Source: a bacterium
GTDB lineage: Bacteria > Patescibacteriota > Patescibacteriia > Veblenbacterales > UBA10138
DNA: 64,000 nucleotides
Assembly (NCBI GenBank): GCA_020057885.1
Contig: JAGVEX010000019.1
Coordinates: 84,045-148,044 of the forward strand
Direction: 5' to 3'
Every line of letters begins with the position of its first letter. The first letter of the stretch is position 1. The position numbers were made by a program, and so were the translations under genes. The notes under the pieces were generated by a model. That model was not told the DNA's origin and searched no databases. It worked only from the letters and a program-made list of their open reading frames with translations. Shown here in pieces: positions 41,231 to 63,738 of the stretch.

Positions 41231-41289
41231 TAAGGTTTAAAAAATAAGGGTTAATAATAGTTTAAATTAAATAAATTGTTTAGACTAAA

Positions 41290-43960: not shown

Positions 43961-44110
43961 AATAAAATCCTAAATCTTAAATCCTAATATCTAAATAAAT
44001 TTTAATAACAGAAAATTTAATTAAATTATTTTGTTTTTAGATTATGTTTGTAAATTTTACGCATTGGGAATTGGGAATTATTTAGGGTTTAGACATTAAG
44101 ATTTGAAATT
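43961..44110. promoter_or_regulatory. About 150-bp intergenic repeat unit (copy A). It holds 'TAAATCC'-type heptads and 'cattgggaattgggaatt' and also occurs at 46808-46945.
   Basis: Copies A and B are about 85% identical by eye. On the minus strand the heptads read 'tagatat taggatt taagatt taggatt' and sit upstream of the ATG at 43941. Confidence 0.45.
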
Positions 44111-44188
44111 TATATTATATTCTTTAATCCACCTGCAACAATTAATTTAATATTCTTAATTCATGGTTCGGTATTCGTGATTCTAAAA

Positions 44189-46060: not shown

Positions 46061-46098
46061 TTAAATCCTAAATTCGAAATCCTAAATCCTAAAAAATT
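46061..46098 (-). promoter_or_regulatory. Heptad array ending 3 nt before the VirB4-C ATG (minus strand reads 'taggatt taggatt tcgaatt taggatt taaattt')
   Basis: Same motif family as the arrays at 16238, 46808 and 62486. Confidence 0.45.
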
Positions 46099-46107
46099 AA
46101 TTTTTAA

Positions 46108-46807: not shown

Positions 46808-46945
46808 TTAAATCCTAAATTCTAAATCCTAATATCTAAATAAATTCCAATACCAAAAACCAATTTAATTATTTTTAGATTACACTTATCAATTTTACAC
46901 ATTGGGAATTGGGAATTATTTAAGATTTAGACATTAAGATTTAAG
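46808..46945. promoter_or_regulatory. About 150-bp intergenic repeat unit (copy B) with 'TAAATCC' heptads, ending 13 nt before the VirB4-N ATG
   Basis: See copy A. The minus strand reads 'tagatat taggatt tagaatt taggatt taattta'. Confidence 0.45.
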
Positions 46946-46962: not shown

Positions 46963-47418
46963 TTACTCTTCGCTCTTACTAACTTCATCTTCTTCTGGCT
47001 TATAGGCTCCTCCTGTATCCACTAATAAAGTAAGTTGTTGTAAACGTGATTGTTGCAAAAGCGGCTTAGTGCGGCCACTAGCAGTGGCTACTATGGGAAT
47101 TGACTTATGAATAGATTCTTGCAAATCATCAGTGCTAATAACTTTTTGCCACACGCGGAGTTTGGGTTTTTTTAAGGTTTGTATGAGGTTAAACAAAAAG
47201 TAATGAAATGGCATACCGTTAAATTTCACAAACGCAAACATAATACCTATGCCAACTGTTATCACTGTCTCCAGAACAAACCAACCAAAAGCCGCTAATT
47301 TAAACTCCAAAAAAATAACAAAACCAACCAGCATTATAATTATAAACTGACGTATGGTAAGAGGACCGATTATTTTATCCTCGACGTCTATAAATTGTGG
47401 CACGACAATTTGCTGCAT
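46963..47418 (-). CDS. PrgI / VirB3-like small type IV secretion membrane protein
   Basis: 'MQQIVVPQFIDVEDKIIGPLTIRQFIIIMLVGFVIF' matches the PrgI-family N-terminus. Two transmembrane helices. It lies immediately upstream of the VirB4 genes. Confidence 0.5.
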   Translation of the reverse strand: MQQIVVPQFIDVEDKIIGPLTIRQFIIIMLVGFVIFLEFKLAAFGWFVLETVITVGIGIMFAFVKFNGMPFHYFLFNLIQTLKKPKLRVWQKVISTDDLQESIHKSIPIVATASGRTKPLLQQSRLQQLTLLVDTGGAYKPEEDEVSKSEE

Positions 47419-47829: not shown

Positions 47830-50052
47830 CTAAAATCTTATCTTCTGATTAAAATCTATTATGGCGTTGAATTCGGCTTCGGAAAGTGTTTGTTCGCCTT
47901 GTGTTTGCAAACTAGCCACTATTTCAACAATTGATTTTTCTTGTTCAATGCTAGCTCGGCCTAGTTTTAAATAGAGTTGGTACACAGGCGAAGCTTGCCA
48001 AGAACGCACTGCTTCCACCCGCCGCGATACTGAAGTTTCGCCAATCAAATCTATTTTGGCTCGAACTTTATTCAAAGCCTCCACGGGCGATGAATCAAGC
48101 CTCCTAAAATCAACTAGGTTCAAACTTTTTAACTCTTCCAGTGGACCTAAGGTTCGTGGTGGCGCTTTAATATCTGTTAATTGTGGCCTAATGTTGTTAG
48201 TTGCTCCTAATTCTTGTCCACTTGTTCCTAATTTGGGTGGTGATGGGGGCTGTGCCCCGTGATCAACTACAGTTGATTTTACGGGGGGTGGGGGGGCGGC
48301 TTTGGAAATTTCTTTTAACAATTCCTCCCGCCAATTTTTAAATTTATCCTCACTAAGCGGCTTGTCTTCAATTTTAGTTGCTTGGGCAGCTACCCTAATA
48401 TCTGAACTCTGAATTTCTTTAGGATTTAGCCTGCCTGCGACTCGATTGAGCTCGCCGAAATCCGGTAGGTAGGGATTTTCGGATTTAGGATTTAATTCAC
48501 CAATCTTATCACTCTTGGGTAAAACCACTTGGGGGCCAGTGACCGGTGATGGAGGGCTAACAACTATTGGCTTATCTTCCCCCATTAATTTATCCAACTC
48601 GCTTTGCATTTTTTCCTGTTCTGTTTGTGGCTTACTATTTACCACTGGTGCAGGTTCTTGCTTCGTGATTCTTACTTCGTGATTCTTACTTCGTGATTCA
48701 AACTCACTTTTAGCATCTTCAATAATTTTTATAACTTGTTCTGTTTTATCAACCGGCAAACCTAAACCGCCCGAAGTTACTGGTTTTAATAATGTTTCGC
48801 GCACTTCCACCACATTGCGCACATCTTTTAAGTGTGATACAAACAAATTTATAAACCTGCGCTTGCCAACTTCGTCCTTAAAACTAAAATTATGTTTTTT
48901 AATTGTTTCATCGGCGAGCACTCTTAATTTTTCTTCTAATGTATTCATGATTCGTAATTCAGTATTCGGTATTCTTAATTTATCAACTTCTTTCTCATCT
49001 TCCAAGTTAAAAAAGAATGCCGGTTCAGTAGTTTTTAAGGCTTGAGGAACAAGTTGATTTGTTATTGGTGATACTAATTCTTCTGTCTGTACTCGTGCTT
49101 TGTAATCAGATGCAGTTAATTTTGTGGAGACTGGTCCTGAAGCAGACATTTTAACCACTGCTGGCGCTAACCGAACTGAAATTGGTAGCTCTGCCACCTC
49201 AGTTGCTATTGGTACAGGGACTATTCCAAATGATTGCTGGATAGTTATCGTATTATTTTTCTGTAAATCAATTTTACTTGCCTCTTTATTATTTAAAATA
49301 CTGTTTACTTTAGCGAAAATATCCTTAATACTATTTTCATTATATTCCTCAAACCAACCACCTTTCACCCAACCAGATTTAGCCCCGTCTATCGGAATAC
49401 TTTCCTCTAACCCCTCTAATTCAGTTGATAACAAATGGCAATGTTCATAAACATTTATCAAGTCTCTAAATTTGTCACGCGAGGCAGGTGACAACACCCT
49501 TAATAATTGCGATGAGGAAAAATACTGTTCTTGTTGATATTTATCACTTCTTTTATTGGCCGTAAATACTAAAAAATCTTTTAAAAAGCCGCCAACGGTT
49601 AGGTTGTTTTCTTTCCAATCTGGTAATCTTATTTTTTCTTGATTATTTAACAAAACGTCTATGATTTGTTTTTTTAATTTATTTCTATCTTCATAAACTA
49701 ATATACTTAATAAAGCGCTTTTAAATTTATTATTCAGTTTAAAATCTTCTATCTGCCACGCATCATTAATATGATAATGAAATTGTTCAACAATCTCACT
49801 TTCGTTTAACAATGATAATCCTACCCACTTGCAATGAGCGATGATCTTTTGATAATTACTATATAATTGACCAAACTTCGAATCAATTTTACTCTCTTTT
49901 AAACCAAACTCTAAAGATCTCGCTAATTTATAAGCAGACTCATAATCATCATACTTTTCTATATCACTCAAGCTAGTCAACATCTCCTGATAAACTACAA
50001 GCGATGTTAATGGATATTGTTCAATTAATTGTTTTATACTTGCCATAGACAA
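47830..50052 (-). CDS. Hypothetical cytoplasmic protein (740 aa) of the type IV secretion-like cluster, with a Pro/Lys-rich low-complexity C-terminal third
   Basis: No transmembrane helix or signal peptide. Heptad-type DNA repeats are embedded in the coding sequence at 48660-48700 and 48945-48980. Confidence 0.45.
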   Translation of the reverse strand: MSMASIKQLIEQYPLTSLVVYQEMLTSLSDIEKYDDYESAYKLARSLEFGLKESKIDSKFGQLYSNYQKIIAHCKWVGLSLLNESEIVEQFHYHINDAWQIEDFKLNNKFKSALLSILVYEDRNKLKKQIIDVLLNNQEKIRLPDWKENNLTVGGFLKDFLVFTANKRSDKYQQEQYFSSSQLLRVLSPASRDKFRDLINVYEHCHLLSTELEGLEESIPIDGAKSGWVKGGWFEEYNENSIKDIFAKVNSILNNKEASKIDLQKNNTITIQQSFGIVPVPIATEVAELPISVRLAPAVVKMSASGPVSTKLTASDYKARVQTEELVSPITNQLVPQALKTTEPAFFFNLEDEKEVDKLRIPNTELRIMNTLEEKLRVLADETIKKHNFSFKDEVGKRRFINLFVSHLKDVRNVVEVRETLLKPVTSGGLGLPVDKTEQVIKIIEDAKSEFESRSKNHEVRITKQEPAPVVNSKPQTEQEKMQSELDKLMGEDKPIVVSPPSPVTGPQVVLPKSDKIGELNPKSENPYLPDFGELNRVAGRLNPKEIQSSDIRVAAQATKIEDKPLSEDKFKNWREELLKEISKAAPPPPVKSTVVDHGAQPPSPPKLGTSGQELGATNNIRPQLTDIKAPPRTLGPLEELKSLNLVDFRRLDSSPVEALNKVRAKIDLIGETSVSRRVEAVRSWQASPVYQLYLKLGRASIEQEKSIVEIVASLQTQGEQTLSEAEFNAIIDFNQKIRF

Positions 50053-53000
50053 TTACAAAGTTTTGGTTTTAACTTTAGCTTTATCTAAAACCTCGTCTGC
50101 ATTCATATAAGCCTCTTTAGCTGGAACACCTCCTTTTTTAGATGGTATAGAATTTATCTTTGCTAACAACGCTGGCATAAAACCACTTTCTTCTATTATC
50201 TTGCCCTCTTTGTCCTTTTTGCCATTCCAATCTTCTCTCATTCTATCTGCAGTTCGTTTCCTTTTTTCATATTCTTCTGGATCGGTCGCTTTGTATTTTT
50301 CTGCCCCCTCTTGAATACTTTGTGCCTCAAGTTCAATTTTTATACCAATTTGTTTTAGTACTTTCATGTTATCTTCGCTGTTCATATTTTCTAACATGTT
50401 GCCATTAGCCTCCCTCATATGTGTTTTAAGTTCGGAATAATGTTCCAGTATATAAGCAACGCCCATTTCGTTTAAAACCGCCTTACGGCCCTTGCTAAGA
50501 TCATTTGGATCTATTGGTTCTTCGTCCATCCAGGCACCACGATTAGATTGACGCCACACGGTCCTCATATCCCGTTTACCGATTTCAACATAACAACGCT
50601 GTTTTTGTGTCTCACGATCACGTTGTTTAAATAAACCATTATCCATTGATACGGCTTGACCAAATGTCCACCAACCCTTATCCTCTGCCACATTACTTAA
50701 ATCATTTTCTAGAGACAAATAAGATTGTTCTTTCATATGAAACTTGTGTCCCATAACCTCATTCATAAATTTATGTAAGCCATCAATGTTGGTTTTATAA
50801 CCTTGATCTTCTAAAATTTCATTTAAATGACCTACTTCGGTAGCTCTAGCCATAATAGCCTGTCCTAAAGCAGAATCACCCCTGTTAAGGGCATCGCGAA
50901 ATCTTGATTTTAATTCATCTTCATTAGTCGTGGTTATTTTCTTCTTTTCTTCATTTACATGCGCACGACCTGCCGCAGTAGCATAATAATTTTGTAATCG
51001 ATAACACCCCTCTCTTTCAATTTTCTTACCAACCTCTTCTGCTTGTCTACGCTTGTCTTTGCGCTCAGATAATGTAAGCTCTGGTGTTTCTAAACGATAC
51101 TGCAAGTTAGCACTTTCGTTGTTAAGTTCTAAAATTTTATTTTCTTTATCTTTCTTTTCATTGTTAGTAAGTTTGCTAAAGTCACTCATATCTTTTTTTC
51201 TTTTTTCCATTTCTTTAAGATTTTCCTTGGCTGTTGTTGTATCCTCTCCACGAGCTTCTTTGGCTGTTATATCTTTTTTTTCTTTATCAATTTCTATTTG
51301 AATCTCAGCTATAATTTTTCCACGTTGCTCTTTTTGGGCATTAGTAAGAGTATCTTTCCCTAATTCCTCAACCTCTCTTTTAATTACCTCTTGTCTTTTC
51401 TTTAACAATCCACTTCCTTCGTCGTTTAATATTTTCCTTTCTTCAGCAGTAAATTTATTTCTCATAACATCATCCATAATATCCTCTTCTTTTTCTCCGG
51501 CTGCTTTTCGTGTTACAATTTCGCTTTTTTGATCAATAACTTTTTTCTGCAAATCACTGTTTGCTAATACGCCTCCATTTAAAACATGTTTTATGGCTGT
51601 TTCTGACTTGCTTTCAGCTGAGGATTCTTTGTTTAATTTCTCTTGCCGACTCTGTAATCCTTCAGTCTTTTTGGCATTACTAAATATACCTCTAATTGTT
51701 TTGAGATATAAAAATCCTTGTAAATTATCTCCTATATCTTCCGAGCCTAAAGAAGCTGCTAGTCCTCGTACACCACCTTGGGCTATATTAGCCGCGGCGG
51801 CTTCATGAAGCTCGCCTTCTTCTTTGTGTTTTTTTGTTGCAAAACCTTCTTTTACATTTTTCCAAGCTTTAACAGGGTTTAATTCATACCCTTTAAGCCA
51901 CTTGAAGCCTGGCACTTTACCTGCCCCAGCTTTTCTAGCTGCCCAAGAATAAGTACTAAAGGGCGCCAAAGCGCTCTTTTTAGCCATCCATGATCCTCCT
52001 TTTTGAATCGCGCTCATCGCACTCCCGGCCAATTTTCCCCCCGCCACGCCGAGTTGCTGTGTCATCCATAAACCGCCCAAAAGCAACATAATGCTAACAA
52101 TAAAAGAAAGCAAAACTTCTGATTGACCAATACTAGTAATAGTCGCGGCGGGAAGTCCTGAAGTTCCTGTGCTAACTCCCGTAAGAGTGCTAGCTGTAGA
52201 TCCGCCCGACATCTGCATTACTGCCAAACTTAACCACAAAAAGAAAGCGAGAATAGGCCCGCTGGAAGCATATTTGCCAAAATAATCCCACCACTGCGAA
52301 GCATACTTTTTAGCATCTCCCGGAAAAGCCTGCAAAATATAAGCCGCGGGAGAAATAATTACCAAAAGCCACAGCATTACAATTCTAAGCGTAAACACCA
52401 CAATATAAACTCCAACTACAATAGTGGCAATGGTAATGGTAATAAGTGCCAAAGCCGCCGCAAAAAAGAAATCTGAACCCGTTGTAGTTACAGTTTGATT
52501 CGAACCTTTTTCCGCGAACTGAAACATATCCTTAATATGGAAACCATTTATAAAGTTGCCCGTAGCCGCATCCTTAAACCCGTTTACAAAAGTAAGCATT
52601 ACCACCTGCGCAAAATCAATAAAGAATCCGGCAATACCTTTGGAAAAATTAACCAGTACTGCCATAATAAGCAATTTGGAAAGTAGGTGTTTGTATTGAT
52701 ATTCCTCCACGCGGAATACTGTACCAAAAGAAATAGCCAACAATATTACAATAAAAAACATGTTTACCACATCCCTCATTACCACCCAACCTTTTACTAC
52801 TGCTGGCGCATCAATAAAACCGTTGTATTGCACAATTTCCACTAAAATACCTATCAAAGCATTGGCGATTGCTCCCACCCCTTGGGCTAAAAGTAACAAA
52901 AGTCCAGCTAAAAGGTTAATTACAGCATCAGAAACTATATTGGCATGCGCTGGTATTGGTAAAAGCAAGGCCAAAACAAAAATACCTAAAATACCCGCGG

Positions 53001-53061
53001 CCGTGGCGCGTGAATATTTAAGTTTGGATGAAAATATTTGTCTTAATTTACCACTAACCAT
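50053..53061 (-). CDS. VirB6/TrbL-like polytopic membrane protein with a roughly 600-aa K/E-rich coiled-coil C-terminal extension
   Basis: Signal or transmembrane start, at least 6 transmembrane helices in the first roughly 380 aa, then a long charged hydrophilic tail. 1002 aa. Confidence 0.45.
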   Translation of the reverse strand: MVSGKLRQIFSSKLKYSRATAAGILGIFVLALLLPIPAHANIVSDAVINLLAGLLLLLAQGVGAIANALIGILVEIVQYNGFIDAPAVVKGWVVMRDVVNMFFIVILLAISFGTVFRVEEYQYKHLLSKLLIMAVLVNFSKGIAGFFIDFAQVVMLTFVNGFKDAATGNFINGFHIKDMFQFAEKGSNQTVTTTGSDFFFAAALALITITIATIVVGVYIVVFTLRIVMLWLLVIISPAAYILQAFPGDAKKYASQWWDYFGKYASSGPILAFFLWLSLAVMQMSGGSTASTLTGVSTGTSGLPAATITSIGQSEVLLSFIVSIMLLLGGLWMTQQLGVAGGKLAGSAMSAIQKGGSWMAKKSALAPFSTYSWAARKAGAGKVPGFKWLKGYELNPVKAWKNVKEGFATKKHKEEGELHEAAAANIAQGGVRGLAASLGSEDIGDNLQGFLYLKTIRGIFSNAKKTEGLQSRQEKLNKESSAESKSETAIKHVLNGGVLANSDLQKKVIDQKSEIVTRKAAGEKEEDIMDDVMRNKFTAEERKILNDEGSGLLKKRQEVIKREVEELGKDTLTNAQKEQRGKIIAEIQIEIDKEKKDITAKEARGEDTTTAKENLKEMEKRKKDMSDFSKLTNNEKKDKENKILELNNESANLQYRLETPELTLSERKDKRRQAEEVGKKIEREGCYRLQNYYATAAGRAHVNEEKKKITTTNEDELKSRFRDALNRGDSALGQAIMARATEVGHLNEILEDQGYKTNIDGLHKFMNEVMGHKFHMKEQSYLSLENDLSNVAEDKGWWTFGQAVSMDNGLFKQRDRETQKQRCYVEIGKRDMRTVWRQSNRGAWMDEEPIDPNDLSKGRKAVLNEMGVAYILEHYSELKTHMREANGNMLENMNSEDNMKVLKQIGIKIELEAQSIQEGAEKYKATDPEEYEKRKRTADRMREDWNGKKDKEGKIIEESGFMPALLAKINSIPSKKGGVPAKEAYMNADEVLDKAKVKTKTL

Positions 53062-53291
53062 GGTAAAAATTAGTTTAAATAATATAAAATCAATAACTAA
53101 TACTATCTTATGTTATCTTACCACTAAATTAGGCAAATTAGTACTGTATTAGTACATTTATTATAACACAATTTTTAATTTCCAGCAACAATAATATAAT
53201 AACCCAATACTTACTTAAATTTTATTGGTCTTCACACCCTGCCTACTAATAAATAGAAAACGAAGCAGATAAAATATAACATCTTTCAATA

Positions 53292-53325
53292 TGCCAAAAA
53301 GTGTCCGGCCGGACACTTTTTGGCA
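53292..53325. repeat. GC-core palindrome P4 (34-bp perfect: 'tgccaaaaagtgtccggccggacactttttggca'), the left border of cassette 2
   Basis: Perfect palindrome with an A5 - GC hairpin - T5 layout. It is part of a roughly 45-bp direct repeat shared with 53973-54016. Confidence 0.6.
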
Positions 53326-53387: not shown

Positions 53388-53939
53388 ATGACCAAAATTC
53401 CACCCCTCACTAAACTTCTACTTTATTGCCTGTTAAAAAGCGGGCAATCAATAATTGACTATGCCGTATTTATGCACGACCTTAGGCAATGGCGAGGATT
53501 ATATTCAATGGGTGGTAGTGCTCGTGTTAGTGAAATTAAAAAATTACAAAATATATCAAGCGCAAAAATCTGCCTGCGTAAGCTTAAAGAGGGTAAATTT
53601 ATCAAAGCGCGCAAAATTGGCAAAAAACTTATTATAGAACTTACAGACAAGGGGGTGGCTGCGACCTTAAGTGAACAATTGCGACAAGAAACTTTACTAC
53701 CGAGTGGCACTTACACGCTGGTGATTTTTGATATTCCAGAAACAGAGCGGGAGGCGCGGCGACATTTCCGCTGGCTACTGCGGCAAGGGGAATTTATTAA
53801 ACTGCAACAAAGTGTTTGGATAAGCAAGCATAATGTGCAAAATACAATTACCCAATTTGTAAAAAAATTAAAACTGGAAAAATGGGTTAATGTTGGTTTG
53901 GTAAGCAATTTGTTTACTGTGGCAAAAAATAATTTATAA
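53388..53939 (+). CDS. PaaX-like wHTH / Cas2-like-motif protein (cassette 2)
   Basis: 'YTLVIFDIPETEREARRHFRWLLRQGEFIKLQQSVWISK'. Same size and layout as ORF 40560..41108. Confidence 0.55.
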   Translation: MTKIPPLTKLLLYCLLKSGQSIIDYAVFMHDLRQWRGLYSMGGSARVSEIKKLQNISSAKICLRKLKEGKFIKARKIGKKLIIELTDKGVAATLSEQLRQETLLPSGTYTLVIFDIPETEREARRHFRWLLRQGEFIKLQQSVWISKHNVQNTITQFVKKLKLEKWVNVGLVSNLFTVAKNNL

Positions 53940-53978
53940 GGTCAATAAAATATCTACAACATACCTAAAATTATCAAT

Positions 53979-54014
53979 ATGCCAAAAAGTGTCCGGCCGG
54001 ACACTTTTTGGCAT
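53979..54014. repeat. GC-core palindrome P5 (36-bp perfect: 'atgccaaaaagtgtccggccggacactttttggcat'), the right border of cassette 2
   Basis: Perfect palindrome, a direct repeat of P4. Confidence 0.6.
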
Positions 54015-54093
54015 ATGATGATATTTACAGTATTTAATAATATTAATGACATTAATAATATTTAAACTAATTAATTATTTTCTCTCATCATCC

Positions 54094-54130
54094 CTAAACA
54101 AAACTACCCTTGTTTAACAAGGGTAGTTTG
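54094..54130 (-). terminator. Rho-independent terminator of the giant gene
   Basis: 13-bp stem 'aactacccttgtt' / 'aacaagggtagtt'. The minus strand continues 'ttttgttt'. It lies about 40 nt downstream of the stop at 54171. Confidence 0.55.
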
Positions 54131-54170
54131 CATTGCATCTTCCAATAATTGTATTGCTCTTTTGTATTGA

Positions 54171-57100
54171 TTATGGCTTAACTTTAATTATGCCATTAAA
54201 TTTAAGCCAACCACTGGCGGAAAGATTACTGCTGTTGCTGATACAGTCAGGAGTGCCCCACTTAGCACCGGTGGAACCCAAGCACCAATCCCAATTATCT
54301 TTTACCAAAACTGCTGGAGTAAATTCACAAGCGCCCTGATTAGCTCCTAAAGAATTTGGATTATAACTCAAACTTGAACTACTGCAAGTATAAACTTTAG
54401 TAAAACCAAAGTAACCAAGGCTGCCACTAGCTGTATCTTGCACACAAGCTTGTGAGGAATCACCAAAGTTATAGCGCGGATTAGCTACATCACCTTCTTT
54501 GCAAGCATTCAGTATACTACTGCACTGCGTGTCATTCGCGCAAAGTTTACCTAGATCGGCTAAGTTAGTGCACATTTTAGCTTTAACTGTTGCTGGTTCA
54601 CACATGTGCTTATGGTTCTTATATTTACCACTAGCGCCAGCTAAAACTGAACCATCACCCCAATTAACCCAAACATCGGTTAAGGGCATTTGCTCGCCAT
54701 TGGGATTATAAGCGTAGAATAAAGTGCTAATAGGAGCAGGCGAAGCCAGCACCACCTCGCCGTTATTAAAACTGCCGCCTGGAGTTTGCAAAGTAAAACC
54801 AGTATTACCCTCAATAGTGGATGTGCCGTTTAATTCAAACACTACTTGTTTAATTGAAGGGGCTAAGGGCACATTATAATAACATGGCGGATTGGTAGAG
54901 GGAGAACATAAAGAACCGGGCAGTCCGCTACTTGAATCAATATCTGGGAGCGCAGGGGAGGTAAAACGGGAAGTTGAAGTATTCCATGTTAAAACATCAA
55001 AAATTTTAGCAAATAATTGCTGCACTCTTACTATACCACTTGTACCCCAACCCAACCCTTGATAACCAGTGCAAGTGTCTCCACTATTGCAATCGTTATC
55101 AACCTGACACAGTTGAGTAGTTCTTACACCGCTTACACCGCCGACTTCGCAAACTTTGTTAAAATACCCCATACAAACAGGGGCGGACGAATCACCGCAA
55201 TCAGCCGACTTATTACATTGTTTCCCTATGGTCAATATACCGTTACTTTGGCCAGAAAGACAAATTCCATACCCTGTGCCACAACCATTTTCGCAGAAAA
55301 AGGATTGTGGGAAAGTTGAAAAATCACCACTGCTACTTGTAATATTAACACCGGGCTTATCGCTCATTATTAACATACTAGTGCCAGAGTCTACTGCTTG
55401 GCTAAGCTTGCCATAAGGACTGGGGTTACGGCTTTGGGTAAAGCCCAGCTCTGTTTTTGGCGCTACTTGATAAACAGTATTTCTGAGCACACGATCAGTC
55501 CAAACTTTATTGCTAGCGCTACTTGCCACTTGAACAGCTTCAGTGCAATATTCTCTTAAATAAGTTTCTCTACCATTTATCACAAAACTACCTGTACCAG
55601 GACTACCGTCAGAATATATCACATTATAACCTAAAAATTTATCATTACTATCAAACACAGCTTTAATAACAGCGTAATCAAAATTTGTGAGAGAATGTAT
55701 ATTCATAGCGACATCAAGATTATGTTGTGTACCATCTATCAAAGTATTAGGCGGTAGAATATTATTAGACGTTAATTTAGCACAACGGTCAGCAAGCTCA
55801 GTAAAATTAAAATCACATTGTTGGTTCATATCACATTTTACACCAGCACACCAATCATTACCTTTATTTAAATAGAATCTCCCATACTCCTCCTGTGAAT
55901 TAGTTGTAAGGGTGAAATTAGGGTTAATACCCCAGCCGCCAAAAAGTTGAAACGGCAGATAAATTGTTTCTATATCAGCTTTATAAAAATTTTCTTCACC
56001 AACCTCGGCTACACGTGAAAAAATAACTATATCCTCACCAGCGGCTTCTATTCTTTTATCTTTGTTATTACAAAAATAATTGGAACCGAGCTCGGAATTT
56101 TGTAGTGTAAAATCATTTGTGCAATATCTTACATCTTGAAACTCATAACAGCGCCAGTCGGCAGTATAATCAATATAAGCTACATTACAATTAGCGAGAG
56201 CTCCATTCGCGGCGTGATACGTATAATTCTCCCCCCGTGAGCCAACTTTGTTACCAATAGATTCACTGCAATAAAAAATCTCGCCGCCAGTATAGCCAGC
56301 CTCCGGAGCATAATTATAAACAGAAATTTCACCAGCCGCTGTATCGAGCGGCAGCCAAGTAAGACAGGCTTTGGCAGTACCGCTGTTAATAGAACGAGAG
56401 GTATCCTGCTCCAAACAATAACCTTTCATACCAATAAAACTGTTGTCAGTTTTAATTTTTGATTTAACCTCAACCGGTTGGTTAGTATTTGCATCAATAT
56501 CATTCTGAGTATAGAACATGGACTGCAGTTTGGTGGTATCAAAACCGTAATACAGTGTTTGCCCGCCGCTATAAATGGCCTTGCTGTAAGAGCACTCACA
56601 ATCTTCTCCGTTTTGGCAATTGTTCGCGTCTTTATAATCAGCGTCTTTATTTTTAGCTACGGCAATATAATTAGCAGTGCCCACAGGCAAACAGTTGCTA
56701 CCCTCGCAAGCTGGGGTCCAGTTTTTTACTACAACTGTGGGGAAAGGTGAATCCTTTTCTGGATAAGCACGACAAGCTTTAATAACAGTATTATTGTCAC
56801 TTAACAATTTTTTATCATCAAGTGGGCCTAAGCCAGTGGCACCCTTATCCTCATATTGACAAGTAGTAACAGTGTTACAAGGAGAAGCGCTACTGCCAAT
56901 TGGTAAATTACACTCATCGCCCGTGCCGCCACACCTTTTAACTTTATTATTTATATAAGTCAAACGGATATTGGTGGTAAGTGGATCAGTAGAATAATTT
57001 TTTTGCGTTAAAAGCTCAATAGAATATTTATCAGGAATAGAATAACCAGAATAATCCATACCGCTCCAATCGGTTGCGCGCGCTTGATAATTAGTTAAAG

Positions 57101-60100
57101 TTAAAGGCTGAGGGTCTTCGGGGGGGGTAAGCCAGTGACTGCATTTACTGACACCGCTACCACTGGTACCCCAAGCGTCACACTTACCTAAAGCATAACA
57201 AATTGAACTAGCCTTACTGCTGACAAAACGCGTGCTTTCGCTTTGGCAGGCCAACCATTCACCACACACACGATCACGACTAACTTTTAGAATAATATTC
57301 GCGTTGTTAGGCGGAGCGCTAATCGGCGCTATTAATTTATCGTTTTGTCCGGTGCTGGAAGCATAAGTGGCGGCGGCATTGCTAGTAAGCTGAGATGAGG
57401 ACAAATCAGTAAACAATAAGCAGCCCTCTTTTTTACTAACACCAGTACATTTTTTATCAAGCTTGCTATTATCCAAATAATAATAAGTTTGCTTGGTAAG
57501 TTCTGGGTCGTGGAAAGCTTTACAGCTTACTTGGTCAGCAGGACACAGATAAGCCAGTGGCACCTGCGACTCGCTCAACGAAAATTGATCTACATAAATA
57601 ACTTGATTGGTGCTGCAAGTTTCGGGTGTACAAATCATATTACCACTGCCCACAGGCTGTTCCACGCCGCCATTGGTAATAAGGCCTACGGAAAGCTGAG
57701 TAACGCCTGGATCAATTTTAATAAGCGCTTGTTTGTAAACCCATTTACCTTTTTCAGTACTAGTTATGATGTTATCGTAACCGGGTTCATAATCATAATG
57801 CGGCACAGCTTGTTGCGTTAATTGCCAACTGGTAAAATTACGATTTTGTGGTATGTCGGGAACATAAATATGAGCTGAAACTGTAAAATAACGCGGCGTA
57901 CTACTTGATTCAATTTTTACATCATTGCTCCAAATTCCAGCGTAAATTTTAGCGCCACTTTCTATTTCCAGCACATTTGAGCCCCAATATTGTCCAGCGA
58001 CTGATTCGTGAGCTGTGAAAATAGCTGACTCGGTTTCTTCACCACTAGGGCCATTAATATTCCAACCCGAAAAAGCGTCTGACAAATTAACAGTTACATT
58101 GTCATAGTAAGCCGTACCAGCAACGGCTGAACCGCCAGCTGAAGTATTTAATTGTAGGAGGCAAGTGCGCGTGGTTGGTTTAAAGCTTAGTTGCAATTTT
58201 TCCCACACACCCGCTTCTTCGGTGTAATCGGAAACATTAACTCCGCAACCTGAAATATTAAGCGTGCGCCTAATGCCTGTATCGGCTTTTACCCAAACGC
58301 GAGCAGTATAAGCTTGGCCAATTATTACATCAAAATTTTGTCGGACCGCATCATCACCGCCAGCAAACTCATCCTTAATGCTTTGTACTCCATTGTGGCT
58401 ATCGCGTATTAAATCTGATGAGAGGGATAAATTCCAATCAGTAGGAGATATGCTATACCAGTTAGCTGGCCAGACGGTAATATTTTCAAAATCACCATCA
58501 GCTATTAAATTATCGCCGACATCATTAACTTTTTCAAAACTTGGATTATCTAACAAATCACAAAGTTCGGTAGTGCCTTTTTTATACCAATCATAACCAC
58601 GCAAACTATCTAATTGTTTGTACTCGCACACTCCATTGCCCGGATCCTTAAAAAAATGGGTAACGGAATTGCTGTCGGTAAACTGTTCGCACTTATCTTG
58701 CGCGCGACTGCACAAAAGCGAGCCAGCTCCTGTGTCACCCAAAGTATCCGGATTTAACTTAACAAATTTATCACTCCAATCTTGCACGTTGCCCGAAGAA
58801 TCAAGTTTGGGCTCACCTACGCGCTGACAAGCCTTGGCCGAAGCAGCGCAGGATTTTTTGGCATCATAAACTCTGTATATTACTTGATCAGCTGGAATAT
58901 TTAAAGCCGGCGGATCGGGCAAAGTAACAACAGTAGATTTAGGTGAAGAAGAATTTTGCGTATTAACCAAAGCTTCACAGCCCACGGCTTCAACTTTGCA
59001 AATTTTACTAAAATCAGTAAGAGTAGTTTTTGTGCCTGCGCGATTGGTATAAGCCGCACAACGTAAGTCACTAGCTGTACAAGTAGAAGGCGTAACCCAA
59101 GTATCTTTGCGGACAAAGAAAGTATCACCTATTTCACGCAAGGATACATTATCAATATAAAATGACGCGGGACTGGATATTGTTAAGGCTAAACTAGCTG
59201 GAACATCGGCCGTAAGCTGAACTGGCCCTAAAGTATAAACTTGCCACTCGCCACTTATTGGCAAGCTCCCTAAGCTAGCAAGGGGGTTGGTATTTATACT
59301 GGCGCTAATAGTGCTAGTGGCCGCCGTACTCTTGATCCAAAAATTAAGGAAATAAAGTTTACTCTTGGCAACCTTGCCACTAATATCTTTAGTAATGGTG
59401 CTGTTGCCAGCGCCTGAATACAAGGAATGACCAAAAGCGGAAGTTGATTCATTGGAATTACTGCCAGGAGTAAAGCCGCCGGTGGGAGTAGTGTCGGTGC
59501 TGAAACCAGCTTCGTTGTCACCAAAAGTAGTTATAGGAAACACTAAGCGTATATTATCGGCAGTAGGACCACGGTATTCTCGGCAACCAACATATTGAGC
59601 GCTACAAATTACACCCTCTTGTGGAATGGCATTATAAAAACAAGCAGGTGGAACAGCGGAGGCATCCCAAGTACCACCACTAGCCTCACAATCATTTTGA
59701 TTTATAGAAGTGGCGCGATAATTAGCGCAAGAGGCGGAAGCTGTAATTGTCTTAGACCAATAACGATAGTGAATTCCACCTGTTGTATCATAAAATTGTT
59801 TGCAATCTGGGTTCGAAGGAAAATCTGTTGGGGGAGTAATACCATTACCACATTCCGATCCTATGTTAGAATTATCTGTAGTAGTAGGCGCCGAATTGGG
59901 CATAGTAGGATCCTCCGCTTTTAACTGCCAAGTTTTAAGCTGATAACCAGATAAATTAGACCCTACCCAAGTGTAGTAAATATGATCTTCACCGGTATCT
60001 AATTTGATACACTGCCTAAGTTCGGCATAATACTCTTTGGCCTCATTCTGAACATTGGTAAATTCCTCACAACCAACCGCTTGAGCAACACAAGATTTAG

Positions 60101-62477
60101 CAGTGGTAGGAATAAAATTCATATCATCATTTGTAGGTAAACATTCAAGCCCGCCGCAGGTAGCTGAAGTTTGACAAATACTGCCGTTATTTATACCACC
60201 ACAACGCAAATTCTGGTTAAAGAAACTGGAATTTTGCTGATAATTGTTATAACCAATACATTCATTGGGGCAAGTGTTGCCTTTAATGGCTGGAATATTG
60301 GGTGAACCGTCGGCTGGCGTATAAAGTTCACAACCAACATCATCAACCCTACAAGAATTTAAATAATTTTTGCAAAGCGCTGAATCGTTAGTAATGTCCG
60401 CGTCATAACAATTTAAGAAACTAGGTGCCTCGCGCAAAGTAACAGCTTGTACTTTGGCATATTGTTCATATGAATCAGTGCTAGTGGCAGGTGTAACTCG
60501 AGCCACTACATCATTAGCCAAACATGCCACATCACTTGTACCGCAGGTAGTACCAACCAAGGTCGACATATTAAAATTACTCAAGCGCAAAAATTGCGTG
60601 CATCCTTCAGCGCTGGATTCGCAGGCGTATGTGCTAAAATCTTTCAAATAAATTTTATCGTCAGCATTATAACGGTTAACTGGTATACTGGCCGCAGAAT
60701 TATAAGATTTGGAATACCAACGGCAACCAATTGAATCACTGGTACAAATACTATTTTCTCCTACCAATGAATTTTGTAGATAAAAATTCGTATTGCCGCT
60801 ACGACTGGTAAATGCCTGACAAGTAGCATAAGGGGAATAACCTGAGCCCGCTGGAAATTCACAACTATCGCCACTGAAACGCCAAACATTTTTTTCTTTG
60901 GTACAATAACCCCAGGCCTGACAATTACCATTATCATCTTCAGCTACACAATTTTGCGTATCAACGCAAATTTCTTGCCTAGTGCCACCTTCAGATTGCA
61001 ACTGTTGGCCACTGGCCTGAATGCGACATTGTGACTGAGGAGCTTTTAATACCCAATTAGGATCAATTAGATGATAAAAAGGGCTACCTAAAACATTAAA
61101 TCCATCCATTACTTGTCGCAAAGTATAACTGGTGCCGGCAAATTGTTTAGCGGCCATTTCCCAGCCAATTGGAATGATTCGCGCCCGGCGTAATTTTTTT
61201 AAATCTGATTCATACCATTTACTAGGCTGACTTTCTTGCTCAGGATGATCTTTAGCAAACACCCAACTGCCGTTAATAAGTTTTTTATTTTGTACGGCGT
61301 CGGCCACAGTAAGCGGCTGACCCGACTCAGCTGAACGCAAAGCCTGCTCAAAACCATTATCAATAGTACAGTTATTAAGCTCAGCAAATTTTCGTGGGCT
61401 AGGACAATTTGAAAACTCGCTGATAACATCAATTTTATCCACACTCTTAAGAGTGGGAGTGGAAATTGAACTATTTATTTGCATGGCGTAATCCACGCCA
61501 CTAATACTGGTATTGTTTGCGATTGGTGAAAATGTGCCGCTGGGATTTTTAACATCTCCCTCTAAAAGCCGTTTCATTAAACGAGAAGCTAGGGTATTGG
61601 TAAAAACACCTAAGGCGTCGGCCACAACATCCCCGGTATAAGTATTAAAATCTTTTAGGGCCTCACCAACAGGCGTATCAACTAATAATTTTTCAACTTT
61701 AGCAGCAGGAGTTTTTATAAAACCGGTAATTGGTTCAGTAACAGCCCTTATGCCCCCATTCATGGTGTCGAGTGCTTTTTGAACGGCTTTTTGATCCTCG
61801 GCTCGTGTTAATAAATCTTGACGCAAACTCAAACTTACGCCCAATTCATTTTGCCGTGGATCTATAGCATAACCAAAAGCCTGTTGCGCCATGCGGGGAT
61901 TTTTTAAATACTGATCCCAAGCCGCGCCAATTTGTTTTAAATTACAACGTGGTCTAGTAGGTCGTATTTCTTCAAATAAAGCCGTGGTAATAATAAGGTT
62001 AGCAGTAAAACCTGGTGGCCTACATACATCCAAACTTAAATAACCGTTCTCGGTAGCTATGGTATCTATAAAGTCACCAGCCGCATCATTCCAAGCGTCA
62101 GTAGCTGATTTACCTAAATTTTTCCAAGTAAATAAAGGTGTTTGTCCTTTGCCACCAGAACCTATCATTACCGCGGCATCATAAGCAATGCGATTGGCAA
62201 ACATTTTAGCTGCATTTTTAAAAGCCACGGCCGCGCCATGTTCCCATACCCATTCTAAAGATTTTGTAAGCCAACCTTTAGCCGCCTCTGCCTGTTGTGC
62301 GACAATTTGTAGCTGGATTGCTGCTAAAACCCCTGGATCAGTTACTGCCCACTGTGCTTGAGCGGATTTAGGAGTAAAAAAAGAAACACCAACTGTAGTA
62401 AAAATAACACTCAAAAATATTCCAGTAGTTAAAACGCGGAATAAGCGTGGGTGTTTATTTTTTAACCAAGAAGACAT
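54171..62477 (-). CDS. Giant (2768 aa) cysteine-rich secreted or surface protein with an N-terminal signal anchor
   Basis: One uninterrupted ORF. The N-terminus has a hydrophobic signal ('LTTGIFLSVIFTTVGVSFF'). Several hundred Cys, Gly, Ser, Thr and Asn residues suggest disulfide-rich beta-structure. A heptad array lies just upstream. Confidence 0.7.
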   Translation of the reverse strand: MSSWLKNKHPRLFRVLTTGIFLSVIFTTVGVSFFTPKSAQAQWAVTDPGVLAAIQLQIVAQQAEAAKGWLTKSLEWVWEHGAAVAFKNAAKMFANRIAYDAAVMIGSGGKGQTPLFTWKNLGKSATDAWNDAAGDFIDTIATENGYLSLDVCRPPGFTANLIITTALFEEIRPTRPRCNLKQIGAAWDQYLKNPRMAQQAFGYAIDPRQNELGVSLSLRQDLLTRAEDQKAVQKALDTMNGGIRAVTEPITGFIKTPAAKVEKLLVDTPVGEALKDFNTYTGDVVADALGVFTNTLASRLMKRLLEGDVKNPSGTFSPIANNTSISGVDYAMQINSSISTPTLKSVDKIDVISEFSNCPSPRKFAELNNCTIDNGFEQALRSAESGQPLTVADAVQNKKLINGSWVFAKDHPEQESQPSKWYESDLKKLRRARIIPIGWEMAAKQFAGTSYTLRQVMDGFNVLGSPFYHLIDPNWVLKAPQSQCRIQASGQQLQSEGGTRQEICVDTQNCVAEDDNGNCQAWGYCTKEKNVWRFSGDSCEFPAGSGYSPYATCQAFTSRSGNTNFYLQNSLVGENSICTSDSIGCRWYSKSYNSAASIPVNRYNADDKIYLKDFSTYACESSAEGCTQFLRLSNFNMSTLVGTTCGTSDVACLANDVVARVTPATSTDSYEQYAKVQAVTLREAPSFLNCYDADITNDSALCKNYLNSCRVDDVGCELYTPADGSPNIPAIKGNTCPNECIGYNNYQQNSSFFNQNLRCGGINNGSICQTSATCGGLECLPTNDDMNFIPTTAKSCVAQAVGCEEFTNVQNEAKEYYAELRQCIKLDTGEDHIYYTWVGSNLSGYQLKTWQLKAEDPTMPNSAPTTTDNSNIGSECGNGITPPTDFPSNPDCKQFYDTTGGIHYRYWSKTITASASCANYRATSINQNDCEASGGTWDASAVPPACFYNAIPQEGVICSAQYVGCREYRGPTADNIRLVFPITTFGDNEAGFSTDTTPTGGFTPGSNSNESTSAFGHSLYSGAGNSTITKDISGKVAKSKLYFLNFWIKSTAATSTISASINTNPLASLGSLPISGEWQVYTLGPVQLTADVPASLALTISSPASFYIDNVSLREIGDTFFVRKDTWVTPSTCTASDLRCAAYTNRAGTKTTLTDFSKICKVEAVGCEALVNTQNSSSPKSTVVTLPDPPALNIPADQVIYRVYDAKKSCAASAKACQRVGEPKLDSSGNVQDWSDKFVKLNPDTLGDTGAGSLLCSRAQDKCEQFTDSNSVTHFFKDPGNGVCEYKQLDSLRGYDWYKKGTTELCDLLDNPSFEKVNDVGDNLIADGDFENITVWPANWYSISPTDWNLSLSSDLIRDSHNGVQSIKDEFAGGDDAVRQNFDVIIGQAYTARVWVKADTGIRRTLNISGCGVNVSDYTEEAGVWEKLQLSFKPTTRTCLLQLNTSAGGSAVAGTAYYDNVTVNLSDAFSGWNINGPSGEETESAIFTAHESVAGQYWGSNVLEIESGAKIYAGIWSNDVKIESSSTPRYFTVSAHIYVPDIPQNRNFTSWQLTQQAVPHYDYEPGYDNIITSTEKGKWVYKQALIKIDPGVTQLSVGLITNGGVEQPVGSGNMICTPETCSTNQVIYVDQFSLSESQVPLAYLCPADQVSCKAFHDPELTKQTYYYLDNSKLDKKCTGVSKKEGCLLFTDLSSSQLTSNAAATYASSTGQNDKLIAPISAPPNNANIILKVSRDRVCGEWLACQSESTRFVSSKASSICYALGKCDAWGTSGSGVSKCSHWLTPPEDPQPLTLTNYQARATDWSGMDYSGYSIPDKYSIELLTQKNYSTDPLTTNIRLTYINNKVKRCGGTGDECNLPIGSSASPCNTVTTCQYEDKGATGLGPLDDKKLLSDNNTVIKACRAYPEKDSPFPTVVVKNWTPACEGSNCLPVGTANYIAVAKNKDADYKDANNCQNGEDCECSYSKAIYSGGQTLYYGFDTTKLQSMFYTQNDIDANTNQPVEVKSKIKTDNSFIGMKGYCLEQDTSRSINSGTAKACLTWLPLDTAAGEISVYNYAPEAGYTGGEIFYCSESIGNKVGSRGENYTYHAANGALANCNVAYIDYTADWRCYEFQDVRYCTNDFTLQNSELGSNYFCNNKDKRIEAAGEDIVIFSRVAEVGEENFYKADIETIYLPFQLFGGWGINPNFTLTTNSQEEYGRFYLNKGNDWCAGVKCDMNQQCDFNFTELADRCAKLTSNNILPPNTLIDGTQHNLDVAMNIHSLTNFDYAVIKAVFDSNDKFLGYNVIYSDGSPGTGSFVINGRETYLREYCTEAVQVASSASNKVWTDRVLRNTVYQVAPKTELGFTQSRNPSPYGKLSQAVDSGTSMLIMSDKPGVNITSSSGDFSTFPQSFFCENGCGTGYGICLSGQSNGILTIGKQCNKSADCGDSSAPVCMGYFNKVCEVGGVSGVRTTQLCQVDNDCNSGDTCTGYQGLGWGTSGIVRVQQLFAKIFDVLTWNTSTSRFTSPALPDIDSSSGLPGSLCSPSTNPPCYYNVPLAPSIKQVVFELNGTSTIEGNTGFTLQTPGGSFNNGEVVLASPAPISTLFYAYNPNGEQMPLTDVWVNWGDGSVLAGASGKYKNHKHMCEPATVKAKMCTNLADLGKLCANDTQCSSILNACKEGDVANPRYNFGDSSQACVQDTASGSLGYFGFTKVYTCSSSSLSYNPNSLGANQGACEFTPAVLVKDNWDWCLGSTGAKWGTPDCISNSSNLSASGWLKFNGIIKVKP

Positions 62478-62485
62478 ACTATAGT

Positions 62486-62520
62486 TAAATCCTAAATCCT
62501 AAACTCTAATTTCTAAACAA
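62486..62520 (-). promoter_or_regulatory. Heptad array ending 10 nt before the giant-gene ATG (minus strand reads 'tagaaat tagagtt taggatt taggatt taactat')
   Basis: Same motif family as the arrays at 16238, 46061 and 46808. Confidence 0.45.
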
Positions 62521-62631: not shown

Positions 62632-63381
62632 CTACAACCCCAAGGTTTGTTTAACAATGTTTTTTACAGTATCATCATCAAATTCCTTTAATGTAGTGGC
62701 ATCAACCCCATTTTTAATTAATAACTGTCTTAATTCCGCGCCTGAAAGTTTTAGAATTGCTTGTTTTTGTTCTTGGGTTAATTGCACTGTAGCAGTAGGC
62801 GAAGTAGTACTATTGTCAGACCCACTAGTAACCGTTGGCGACTCATTGCCAGCCACTTCTTGATAAAGTTTTAACAAGGCGGCGTCGTCATACTTGGATA
62901 AAACTTCATCGGTAGCCCCATTAGTTTTTAAAAATTGCCTTATTTGCTCCACAGTCGGCTGATTAGTGGCGGTTGTTTCTCCAACGGCACTATTTATTTT
63001 AACCCCGCAGGTTTGGCCTTTAGCGCAAAGCGGATCGTTGCCCGTAGTTACTTCAACCTTGTCATCATAGCCATCGGAATCAGTATCTTTTAAATAAGGA
63101 CTGGTTTTGTAAATGTAAACTTCGTCATAATCAGACAAGCCGTCATTATCGGTATCTTTATTTTTAAGAGCTTCGGCTTCAGAGCCCTCAATGGTTGAAT
63201 TATTTACATTTTGTTCGCCTGTACTGGTATTAATTGATGAAGTATCGGTAAAAGGTAATTTAATTAAAGTGCGGATTTGCCAAACACCTAAAATTAAGGC
63301 TCCTATAGCAACCAACCCCAAAACAAAGTTAACACGCTCGTGGGAAGGGGCTGGCCTATCATCTCGAGGCGTGGTAGGCAT
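62632..63381 (-). CDS. Bitopic membrane protein with thrombospondin-type-3-like Ca-binding Asp repeats
   Basis: N-terminal transmembrane helix, then 'DTDNDGLSDYDEVYIYKTSPYLKDTDSDGYDD'. 249 aa. Confidence 0.4.
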   Translation of the reverse strand: MPTTPRDDRPAPSHERVNFVLGLVAIGALILGVWQIRTLIKLPFTDTSSINTSTGEQNVNNSTIEGSEAEALKNKDTDNDGLSDYDEVYIYKTSPYLKDTDSDGYDDKVEVTTGNDPLCAKGQTCGVKINSAVGETTATNQPTVEQIRQFLKTNGATDEVLSKYDDAALLKLYQEVAGNESPTVTSGSDNSTTSPTATVQLTQEQKQAILKLSGAELRQLLIKNGVDATTLKEFDDDTVKNIVKQTLGL

Positions 63382-63567
63382 ATTTAAAACAATAATTTAA
63401 CTGAAAATTGATAATTTATCTAAATCAATTATATCACAGAACGGGGTAATTGTCAAAGTTAAAAGCTTAAATTCTAATCTGAAGCGCAACGCTTTGAAAG
63501 GGATAGACTCGTTTACAATATATGCGCAAAAATCCAAAACCTGAATCACCTTAAATCACCAATCTTA

Positions 63568-63593
63568 CACTTTGTGACGGCCGCCAAAAAGTG
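63568..63593. repeat. GC-core palindrome P6 ('cactttgtgacggccgccaaaaagtg'). It is a single copy in a locus homologous to both flanks of cassette 1, a putative empty site.
   Basis: 63515-63593 matches 40464-40537. 63594-63660 matches 41231-41300. No ORF lies between them. Confidence 0.5.
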
Positions 63594-63702
63594 TAAGATT
63601 TAAATTAAAATAAATTGTTTAAACTAAAATCATAATAGCTATTACGGCGCCAACTACTAATGAAGACTTTGTTGGCTTATCAACTCAGGATGAATTGCCT
63701 TA

Positions 63703-63738
63703 GTACGGATTTATGTCCAGCTGGACATAAATCCGTAC
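63703..63738. repeat. GC-core palindrome P7 (36-bp perfect: 'gtacggatttatgtccagctggacataaatccgtac')
   Basis: Perfect palindrome with a 'gtccagctggac' core. Confidence 0.5.

Follow-up and report, generated by a model that had tools for sequence, protein, structure and literature searches.

TraN, a surface-exposed accessory protein of type IV secretion systems (T4SSs), is exported by the Sec pathway, carries 22 conserved cysteines and joins a conserved core to a variable beta-sandwich 'tip' that sets partner specificity (PMC9246713). PrgB, an adhesin whose lectin-like and Ig-like modules bind partner cell-wall polymers (PMC12857230), is encoded with a T4SS of the monoderm type, the class ancestral to the T4SS of Patescibacteria (PMC12102498), and for VirB5 an adhesive role at the T4SS pilus has been proposed (PMC12857230). 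In Southlakia, the one Patescibacterium in which the T4SS has been tested, the system is essential, has pilins and is without a relaxase and a coupling protein (PMC10633639, PMC11665869). Published surveys found neither an adhesin nor a VirB5-type component in the Patescibacteria T4SS; the 2025 survey stated that 'No adhesins ... were detected' and found no PrgB homologs in the group (PMC12102498). Giant predicted surface or adhesion proteins of 4,900-6,000 amino acids (aa), with FhaB/DUF2341 domains and without full-length homologs, have been described in Patescibacterium danicum, a member of ABY1 (PMC11809585). Here, we describe a gene for a cysteine-rich protein of 2,768 aa (the giant protein), which heads the T4SS gene cluster in a stretch of 64,000 nucleotides (nt) from a Veblenbacterales genome (contig JAGVEX010000019.1; the window, to which positions refer).

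With moderate confidence, we interpret the giant protein as a component of the chromosomal T4SS of ABY1 that is exported by Sec, stapled by disulfides and serves in host recognition or adhesion; no better candidate has yet emerged for the host-recognising, host-gripping part of the Patescibacteria T4SS. The preliminary description of this DNA had already proposed host attachment. In favour of that proposal are the predicted export, the cysteines, the position at the head of the T4SS cluster, the occurrence in reduced-genome Patescibacteria and a scaffold bearing lectin- or carbohydrate-binding-module (CBM)-type cassettes, adhesion itself being a prediction. By analogy, it would be a T4SS-associated partner-recognition protein on a mostly unmatched disulfide-rich scaffold; the family is undescribed in the literature searched, and the 2025 survey found no adhesins.

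By the same kind of comparison, the giant protein is functionally most like TraN, PrgB and VirB5, and falls outside full membership of all three. It shares with TraN the association with a T4SS, predicted surface exposure and Sec export, many conserved cysteines, and a conserved core combined with a variable part that would set partner specificity. TraN, however, is an outer-membrane protein of diderms of about 600 aa, whereas the giant protein is far longer, comes from a monoderm-type lineage, and has 104 cysteines and two variable cassettes; no match to the TraN family was found at E <= 1 (Pfam) or E <= 0.1 (NCBIfam), and the likeness is one of function. The giant protein resembles PrgB as a candidate adhesin encoded with a T4SS. 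In contrast to PrgB, which is not cysteine-rich, it has no polymer-adhesin domain (no adhesin-domain Pfam match), no C-terminal hydrophobic segment and no LPxTG motif, and 120 homologs likewise lacked the segment and, in their last 60 aa, the motif. The P. danicum giants are a different family: the present one is without FhaB domains, is shared by hundreds of species and is linked to a T4SS. Nor were the marks of repeat adhesins and S-layer proteins found in the giant protein, which has no tandem repeats, no GGxGxD or RTX motifs and no SLH or other cell-wall-binding domain; CxxC motifs are absent too.

A family of giant cysteine-rich proteins

A word-indexed search returned 183 relatives of 2,500-3,700 aa, and an exhaustive HMMER search with residues 30-1229 as the query found 1,440 representatives, one per 50%-identity cluster, at E <= 1e-3 and 1,138 at E <= 1e-30. 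The peptide pattern DP[ND]W[VIL][LI][KR]AP led to confirmed relatives in at least 354 species-representative genomes. All named sources in the word-indexed search were Patescibacteria (Uhr-, Kerfeld-, Komeili- and Magasanikbacteria), while the named genomes from the pattern search were those of Veblen-, Kerfeld-, Magasanik-, Falkow- and Kuenenbacteria, which NCBI taxonomy places in the Parcubacteria group and which we take to belong to the class ABY1 of GTDB. Named annotations among the relatives read 'hypothetical' or follow a single domain, and no published description of the family was found in the literature searched. This is a large, uncharacterised family, found, among named sources, only in ABY1-type Patescibacteria.

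The relatives labelled Veblenbacteria or Kerfeldbacteria that were called closest share 44-53% identity over the core, and two relatives (P0006 and P0007) align end to end with the giant protein (99-100% coverage). The prior database record of the window's own protein was a fragment of 1,276 aa only (P0121). The open reading frame (ORF) is intact and lies where the preliminary description had placed it, on the minus strand. That description had also allowed for chimerism across the ORF; because several homologs align full-length and colinearly, an assembly chimera was excluded for practical purposes. The gene is real and under constraint.

A hydropathy scan found one hydrophobic segment, at aa ~12-35, in agreement with the earlier statement that no transmembrane (TM) helix follows the N-terminus. 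This segment had been called a signal anchor. Across 76 family members, however, it is followed by P-x-P-A-x-A, with Ala41 kept in 70, and the plurality mature N-terminus is Q-[FLIW]-P-V-x-D. Thus the N-terminal segment is more likely a cleaved Sec signal peptide than an anchor, and the protein is predicted to be exported by Sec.

Cysteine makes up 3.76% of the giant protein (104 residues) against 0.96% in the 39 other window ORFs (3.9-fold), and serine, threonine and asparagine are each enriched 1.4-1.5-fold. The preliminary description had named all four, and also glycine, for which the claim is weak because the enrichment is just 1.17-fold. Nearly all of the cysteines lie after aa ~480, and 66 of the 104 are kept in >70% of 118 homologs, many of them invariantly. 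The hairpin motif C-x6-C-x2-[FYW] occurs 13 times, compared with 2.8 +/- 1.8 in shuffled sequences, and ten of these pairs are invariant or nearly so across the family; those in the first part of the cysteine-stapled core (aa 491-996) are 578/585, 619/626, 709/716, 796/803 and 958/965. Neither internal sequence repeats, for which a check had been suggested, were detected in the protein by BLAST, nor paralogs within the window.

A local alignment of 119 sequences revealed a mosaic of conservation. A universal core (~80-1310), ending with a second run of C-x6-C hairpins, is followed by a variable region (~1310-1640), a conserved block (~1640-2080), a second variable region (~2080-2550) and a semi-conserved end (~2550-2768). 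Against the closest relative, P0001 (76% identical overall), identity falls to 18-28% in the second cassette and is 60-90% on both of its flanks. At the variable positions, relatives carry fn3, CBM_4_9, Big_9 and Laminin_G_3/ConA-like modules as well as PA14 and dockerin (Laminin_G_3, fn3 and Big_9 from scanned relatives, PA14 and dockerin from precomputed Pfam lists). A diversity-generating retroelement was ruled out as the source of this cassette variation, as no template/variable repeat pair touches the giant gene.

Domain searches of the giant protein against Pfam and NCBIfam gave sub-threshold matches only, to DUF4141 (aa 31-52) and to CBM_4_9/choice-of-anchor-C (aa 1323-1463); CBM_4_9 scored 18.3 bits against a cut-off of 25.9, and 36.9 bits in the relative P0034. 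A search of PDB sequences gave nothing significant for the giant protein, for a profile of its N-terminal domain or for the VirB6-like profile. An AlphaFold2 model of aa 30-1229, built from a 29-row alignment, was helical and unreliable at aa 30-350 (predicted local distance difference test, pLDDT, 27-57), confident at aa 350-490 (~85), and beta-rich and confident at aa 590-1229 (80-90). When the structure was compared with PDB by Foldseek, every significant match fell on one beta-sandwich of ~130-170 residues (E ~5e-6), the targets being CBM4/9/16/22 modules (4xuo, 8xmz, 1gui and 2zex; E 5.6e-6 to 9e-5, TM-score to target 0.5-0.68) and the related domains with which iota/CDT, Cry and Vip3 toxins bind their receptors. 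As the structure search gives no query coordinates, the position of the sandwich, aa 997-1128, was derived from the family profile, which also weakly detected a second CBM-like copy at aa 1373-1464. The domain thus has the CBM4/9/22-type jelly-roll at the level of fold, and glycan binding is predicted. Nowhere in the protein was a catalytic or toxin fold detected.

The fold had been left unassigned in the preliminary description. This still holds for ~80% of the protein, including the cysteine-stapled core and the N-terminal module, which is without a match in Pfam, NCBIfam and PDB, but no longer for the sandwich at aa ~997-1128, a weaker second one at aa ~1323-1464, and Ig/PKD/Fn3-like modules detectable at the fold level. 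The same ~80% argues against a routine S-layer or PKD-repeat protein, a possibility raised at the outset, and makes the family a source of new disulfide-rich extracellular folds.

T4SS linkage and readings of the giant protein

Judged from its genes, the window cluster is the Patescibacteria T4SS of earlier reports (PMC12102498, PMC10633639): VirB4, PrgI/VirB3, VirB6-like and VirB2-like pilin genes are co-located, as in the MPF_FATA-like type of this group. As reported for ABY1 (PMC12102498), RadA and RecG adjoin the T4SS genes. Elsewhere the window carries housekeeping genes (UvrABC, UvrD, RNase J, a tRNA synthetase), and the T4SS is therefore chromosomal. Of the scanned ORFs (34 of the 40 window ORFs of >=150 aa), none showed a relaxase or coupling-protein domain.

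Linkage of the giant gene to this system was followed in 90 fetched loci. In all 57 evaluable loci, the next gene upstream of the giant gene encodes a homolog of the 249-aa TSP3 (thrombospondin type 3) protein, and a homolog of the 1,002-aa polytopic protein lies downstream in 37 of 49. The latter is probably an 'extended VirB6'-like channel subunit: it has the layout described under that name (PMC12857230), TrbL/VirB6 matches were seen, below threshold, in two of its 36 homologs, and its gene stands where the Southlakia T4SS has its VirB6-like genes, annotated by structure. The conserved order is KsgA, TSP3 protein, giant gene, VirB6-like, then PrgI, TraC-like, VirB4 and pilins, with PrgI, TraC-like and VirB4 within 10 kb in five of eight long loci, including members only ~28-30% identical. 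The giant gene had been placed at the 5' end of the cluster. It does head the T4SS cluster, but the true 5' gene of the unit is that of the TSP3 protein, which is preceded by a promoter-like site of the sigma70 type. The TSP3-giant pair is a class-specific addition, because the Southlakia T4SS cluster contains no comparable giant protein.

The mechanism which we propose has four steps. The protein would be exported by Sec through its N-terminal signal peptide, with cleavage likely at the conserved A-x-A. Several dozen disulfide bonds, to which the 66 family-conserved cysteines and at least ten C-x6-C hairpins point, would then lock it outside the membrane, the DsbA-like oxidoreductase being the probable catalyst. 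The N-terminal module and the cysteine-stapled core would form a scaffold held at the cell surface, presumably non-covalently, because it lacks both a sortase motif and a C-terminal anchor; conserved gene order suggests as holders the TM-anchored, Ca-binding TSP3 protein and/or the extended VirB6-like channel protein, or a VirB2-like pilus. Finally, the CBM-type beta-sandwich and the two fast-evolving cassettes would bind glycans or proteins on the partner-cell surface and so position the T4SS, and swapping of cassettes, to judge from domain content and the pattern of variation, would retune specificity. The giant protein thus offers a concrete candidate for a determinant of host contact and host specificity in ABY1, which abounds in groundwater and wastewater and for which we know of no host pair in culture. 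Cassette types in metagenomes could be compared with the hosts that occur alongside.

Several observations weigh against a recognition role within the T4SS. In three loci (L003, L006 and L088), unrelated genes stand between the unit and PrgI-VirB4, or no PrgI-VirB4 was seen within 10 kb. Gene content indicates that the giant protein is not a universal T4SS part, because the experimentally studied T4SS of Saccharibacteria works without such a protein. In this genome, the giant and VirB6-like genes are not co-transcribed, as two terminator hairpins and a PaaX-like cassette lie between them. Both AlphaFold models are of moderate confidence (mean pLDDT 67.6 for the model described above and 66.7 for the other), with the N-terminal 320 residues poorly modelled, and S-layer proteins and glycosidases, too, often contain CBM-like and Ig-like modules.

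A second reading, doubtful and yet the strongest of the alternatives, is that of a VirB5-equivalent structural subunit, which would supply the tip or adhesin that the pilus of the Patescibacteria T4SS has so far lacked. The TrbJ-like mature N-terminus would dock and nucleate on the extended VirB6-like platform, and VirB2-like pilins would push the head of ~2,700 residues outward at the tip of the pilus. The gene lies directly upstream of a VirB6-like gene, the canonical virB5/trbJ position (R751 order, trbJ-trbK-trbL), and a model of VirB5 on VirB6 has been reviewed (PMC12857230). As in VirB5/TrbJ, a Sec signal is followed by '(Q/G)-[IL]-P-V-x-D'; in the giant family the consensus is 'PxPAxA|Q-[FLI]-P-V-x-D', the counterpart of 'TPVQA|GIPVID' in R751 TrbJ, our reference for this comparison, and hhalign aligns exactly those 12 columns. 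The N-terminal region of the giant protein is predicted helical. Sub-threshold matches to DUF4141, a conjugative-transfer family, in five of 76 members and to TrbJ_Ti in one also favour this reading, as do the pilin genes in the window cluster and the lack, to our knowledge, of a VirB5 homolog for the Patescibacteria T4SS. In contrast, the hhalign probability over those 12 columns is 4.3%, all Pfam and NCBIfam matches fall below curated cut-offs (DUF4141 at 20.3-24.2 bits against 30, TrbJ_Ti at E 0.004), and a profile search of PDB sequences found no VirB5/TraC. The helical region is the poorly modelled one, R751 TrbJ has 254 aa and the giant protein ~11 times as many, the rest of the giant protein is a cysteine-rich beta scaffold absent from VirB5, and the post-cleavage motif varies within the family. 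Thus no match at curated threshold placed the protein in VirB5/TrbJ (PF07996, TIGR02780/TIGR02791, DUF4141). Were it a tip protein nonetheless, the ABY1 T4SS would be a host-docking organelle whose specificity is readable from one gene, and the swappable cassettes of lectin type would determine the host to which an ABY1 episymbiont can attach and from which it can feed.

It is unlikely that the giant protein is instead an S-layer-like structural protein of the envelope or a T4SS-independent adhesin, whose T4SS adjacency reflects nothing more than a conserved chromosomal neighbourhood (LeuRS-Sua5-KsgA...). Those housekeeping genes are indeed syntenic too across the family, a strong promoter lies upstream of the TSP3-giant pair, the giant gene forms its own transcription unit in this genome, and some relatives have the unit apart from PrgI-VirB4. 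Neighbourhood alone, however, would leave aside the VirB6-like gene that occupies the other flank in most loci, as well as a specific cis-element common to the giant, VirB4, TraC-like and 187-aa genes (see below); Pfam and NCBIfam gave no SLH or other cell-wall-binding domain, and swapping of cassettes is a better fit to recognition than to the formation of a lattice. A secreted polymer-binding or polymer-degrading protein, with CBM modules that scavenge host cell wall or exopolysaccharide, is very unlikely: glycoside hydrolases typically bear CBM4/9/22-like folds as appendages, and relatives have dockerin or CBM_4_9 modules as well as nearby genes for M23 and LysM peptidases, yet the conserved blocks are cysteine-stapled beta modules. 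Hardly credible, lastly, is a T4SS-translocated effector or toxin, or a chimeric ORF, since adjacency to a T4SS and the suspicion of artefact invited by a giant ORF in metagenome-type sequence are set against a Sec signal peptide foreign to the design of a cytoplasmic substrate, the lack of a toxin domain and of any match to the PADLOC defence models, a highly conserved core and full-length colinear homologs in hundreds of genomes.

Feature positions, transcription signals and repeat elements

The positions of the giant gene, the segments of its product, the neighbouring genes and the DNA elements are collected in Table 1.

Table 1. Giant gene, segments of its product, neighbouring genes and DNA elements, with positions in the window.
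Feature	Position	Strand	Description
Giant ORF	54171-62477	minus	ATG start, 2,768 aa plus stop codon; colinear full-length homologs
Predicted Sec-type signal peptide, aa 1-41	62355-62477	minus	K/R-rich n-region, hydrophobic core of ~20 aa, P-x-P-A-x-A; predicted mature N-terminus Q-[FLIW]-P/A-V-x-D
Cys-poor N-terminal module, aa 42-350	61428-62354	minus	predicted helical (pLDDT 27-57); conserved AYDxAV..ASGGxGQ motif
Most conserved compact alpha/beta domain, aa 351-490	61008-61427	minus	EFSxCP...NCxID...LRKARIIPxGWELAA...HLIDPNWVLKAP; pLDDT ~80-88
Cys-stapled core part 1, aa 491-996	59490-61007	minus	C-x6-C-x2-[FYW] hairpins and other invariant Cys
CBM4/9/16/22-like beta-sandwich (jelly-roll), aa 997-1128	59094-59489	minus	Foldseek; placed by family profile
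Invariant C-x6-C hairpin run 2, aa 1129-1310	58548-59093	minus	1133/1140, 1160/1167, 1210/1217, 1256/1263
Variable cassette 1, aa 1311-1640	57558-58547	minus	here a weak CBM_4_9/choice-of-anchor-C-like module, aa 1323-1464
Second conserved block, aa 1641-2080	56238-57557	minus	Cys-rich, beta-rich; ILKVxRDRxCxEWLxC, CRxYPExDSPFP, GYCLExD...ACLTWxPxD
Variable cassette 2, aa 2081-2550	54828-56237	minus	swapped even in the 76%-identical closest relative
Semi-conserved C-terminal module, aa 2551-2768	54174-54827	minus	end ...DNWGWC...C...W-x-[FY]-x-G-x-[IV]-x-V-x-P
249-aa TSP3 partner	62632-63381	minus	TM anchor aa 18-36, two thrombospondin-type-3 Ca-binding repeats, two helical repeats
1,002-aa polytopic protein	50053-53061	minus	~7 N-terminal TM segments, large hydrophilic C-terminal part
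740-aa soluble protein of no recognised family	47830-50052	minus	conserved fourth gene of unit
PrgI/VirB3-like	46963-47418	minus
TraC-like, 229 aa	46108-46797	minus
VirB4 ATPase, 621 aa	44189-46054	minus
187-aa single-TM protein	43378-43941	minus
160-aa two-TM protein	42803-43285	minus
Cys-rich T4SS_pilin protein	41374-42732	minus	30 Cys
Membrane-anchored DsbA-like thioredoxin	37509-38168	minus
Second Cys-rich T4SS_pilin+VanY protein	36369-37505	minus	14 Cys
RadA	35020-36369	minus
Sigma70-type promoter-like site	63428-63456	minus	TTGACA-17-TATAAT with TG, 12/12 match, upstream of TSP3 gene
Heptad element, ~5 units	62486-62518	minus	TTTAGAw-ATTAGGA-TTTAGGA-TTTAGGA-TTTAA, ends ~12 nt before giant ATG
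Heptad element copies	62486-62518, 46813-46848, 46061-46101, 43963-44003	minus	giant, TraC-like, VirB4, 187-aa genes
Intrinsic-terminator-like hairpin and U-tract	54096-54131	minus	~40 nt after giant stop; dG -18.4 kcal/mol, z -4.8; then UUUUGUUU
PaaX_M/Cas2-like helix-turn-helix cassette	53286-54016	gene 53388-53939 plus	between giant and VirB6-like genes

The sigma70-type site is likely the promoter of the TSP3-giant gene pair. The heptad element, described earlier as the giant gene's own, proved real: Tandem Repeats Finder (TRF) reported a period of 7 at 62486-62503, and (TTTAGGA)n matches number 12 in the window against 1.19 +/- 0.99 expected. It is not private to the giant gene, however, since elements of ~35 nt precede the ATG, by 8-30 nt, of the TraC-like, VirB4 and 187-aa genes as well. 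This repeated occurrence argues for common control of the four genes. Each unit contains an AGGA core resembling a Shine-Dalgarno sequence, and the element may be an operator or a translational element of multiple Shine-Dalgarno sites. It was absent from 86 of 87 related loci and is thus specific to this genome or lineage.

The strong terminator noted after the giant gene was borne out by the hairpin (54098-54131) and U-tract listed above, and a second hairpin, an 18-bp palindrome at 53977-54016, is more stable still (dG -30.3, z -8.6). The PaaX_M/Cas2-like gene that follows is bracketed by identical 40-nt palindromes (53286-53325 and 53974-54013). Related hairpins (40506-40548 and 41199-41241) bracket a second PaaX_M-like gene (40560-41108), and another, at 63562-63604, lies upstream of the TSP3 gene. 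The PaaX-like genes thus resemble small cassettes that have entered the T4SS cluster; in seven relatives, too, PaaX_M-like genes adjoin the giant gene (L003, L004, L012, L014, L018, L020 and L022). An 88-nt repeat, 86% identical between its copies, lies upstream of the second PaaX-like gene (40457-40544) and upstream of the TSP3-giant promoter (63513-63600), and may be a common operator for PaaX-like regulators.

Within the T4SS cluster, VirB4 is split into a TraC-like N-terminal protein and the ATPase, as in all relatives examined and in Southlakia (SEML1_0009/0008). The two T4SS_pilin proteins have a near-identical two-TM pilin core and differing cysteine-rich extracellular extensions, to which one adds a VanY D,D-carboxypeptidase; the DsbA-like thioredoxin could plausibly oxidise both the giant protein and these pilins. 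A gene for an AbiEii-type nucleotidyltransferase toxin (39532-40149, minus strand) also lies in the cluster, next to that of a PD40 beta-propeller membrane protein (38258-39523).

In two of the fetched loci, L005 and L006, a block of EF-P, (S18), SSB and S6 genes (~23.9-25.7 kb, locus coordinates) follows a four-gene unit of TSP3, giant, VirB6-like and a gene for ~420 aa. Beyond the block, L005 has PrgI and VirB4, and L006 has neither within the 10 kb fetched. The four-gene unit is thus separable from the ATPase module, as the EF-P/SSB/S6 block intervenes in some lineages.

Further repeats were found in the window. An 81-nt repeat, 85% identical (44024-44104 and 46862-46942), lengthens the stretch that the 187-aa and TraC-like genes have in common upstream and contains a second heptad, TTGGGAA, twice. 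Another heptad-periodic family (ATTCGGT/ATTCGTG) occurs at 38203-38245, 43317-43373, 44140-44182, 48656-48698 and 48938-48980, with some copies intergenic in the T4SS cluster and two inside the 740-aa gene. A perfect 36-nt palindrome, GTACGGATTTATGTCCAGCTGGACATAAATCCGTAC, at 63690-63725, beyond the end of the gene upstream of the TSP3 gene, is probably the terminator of a KsgA/RsmA-like gene, the identity of which was assigned by synteny with related loci.

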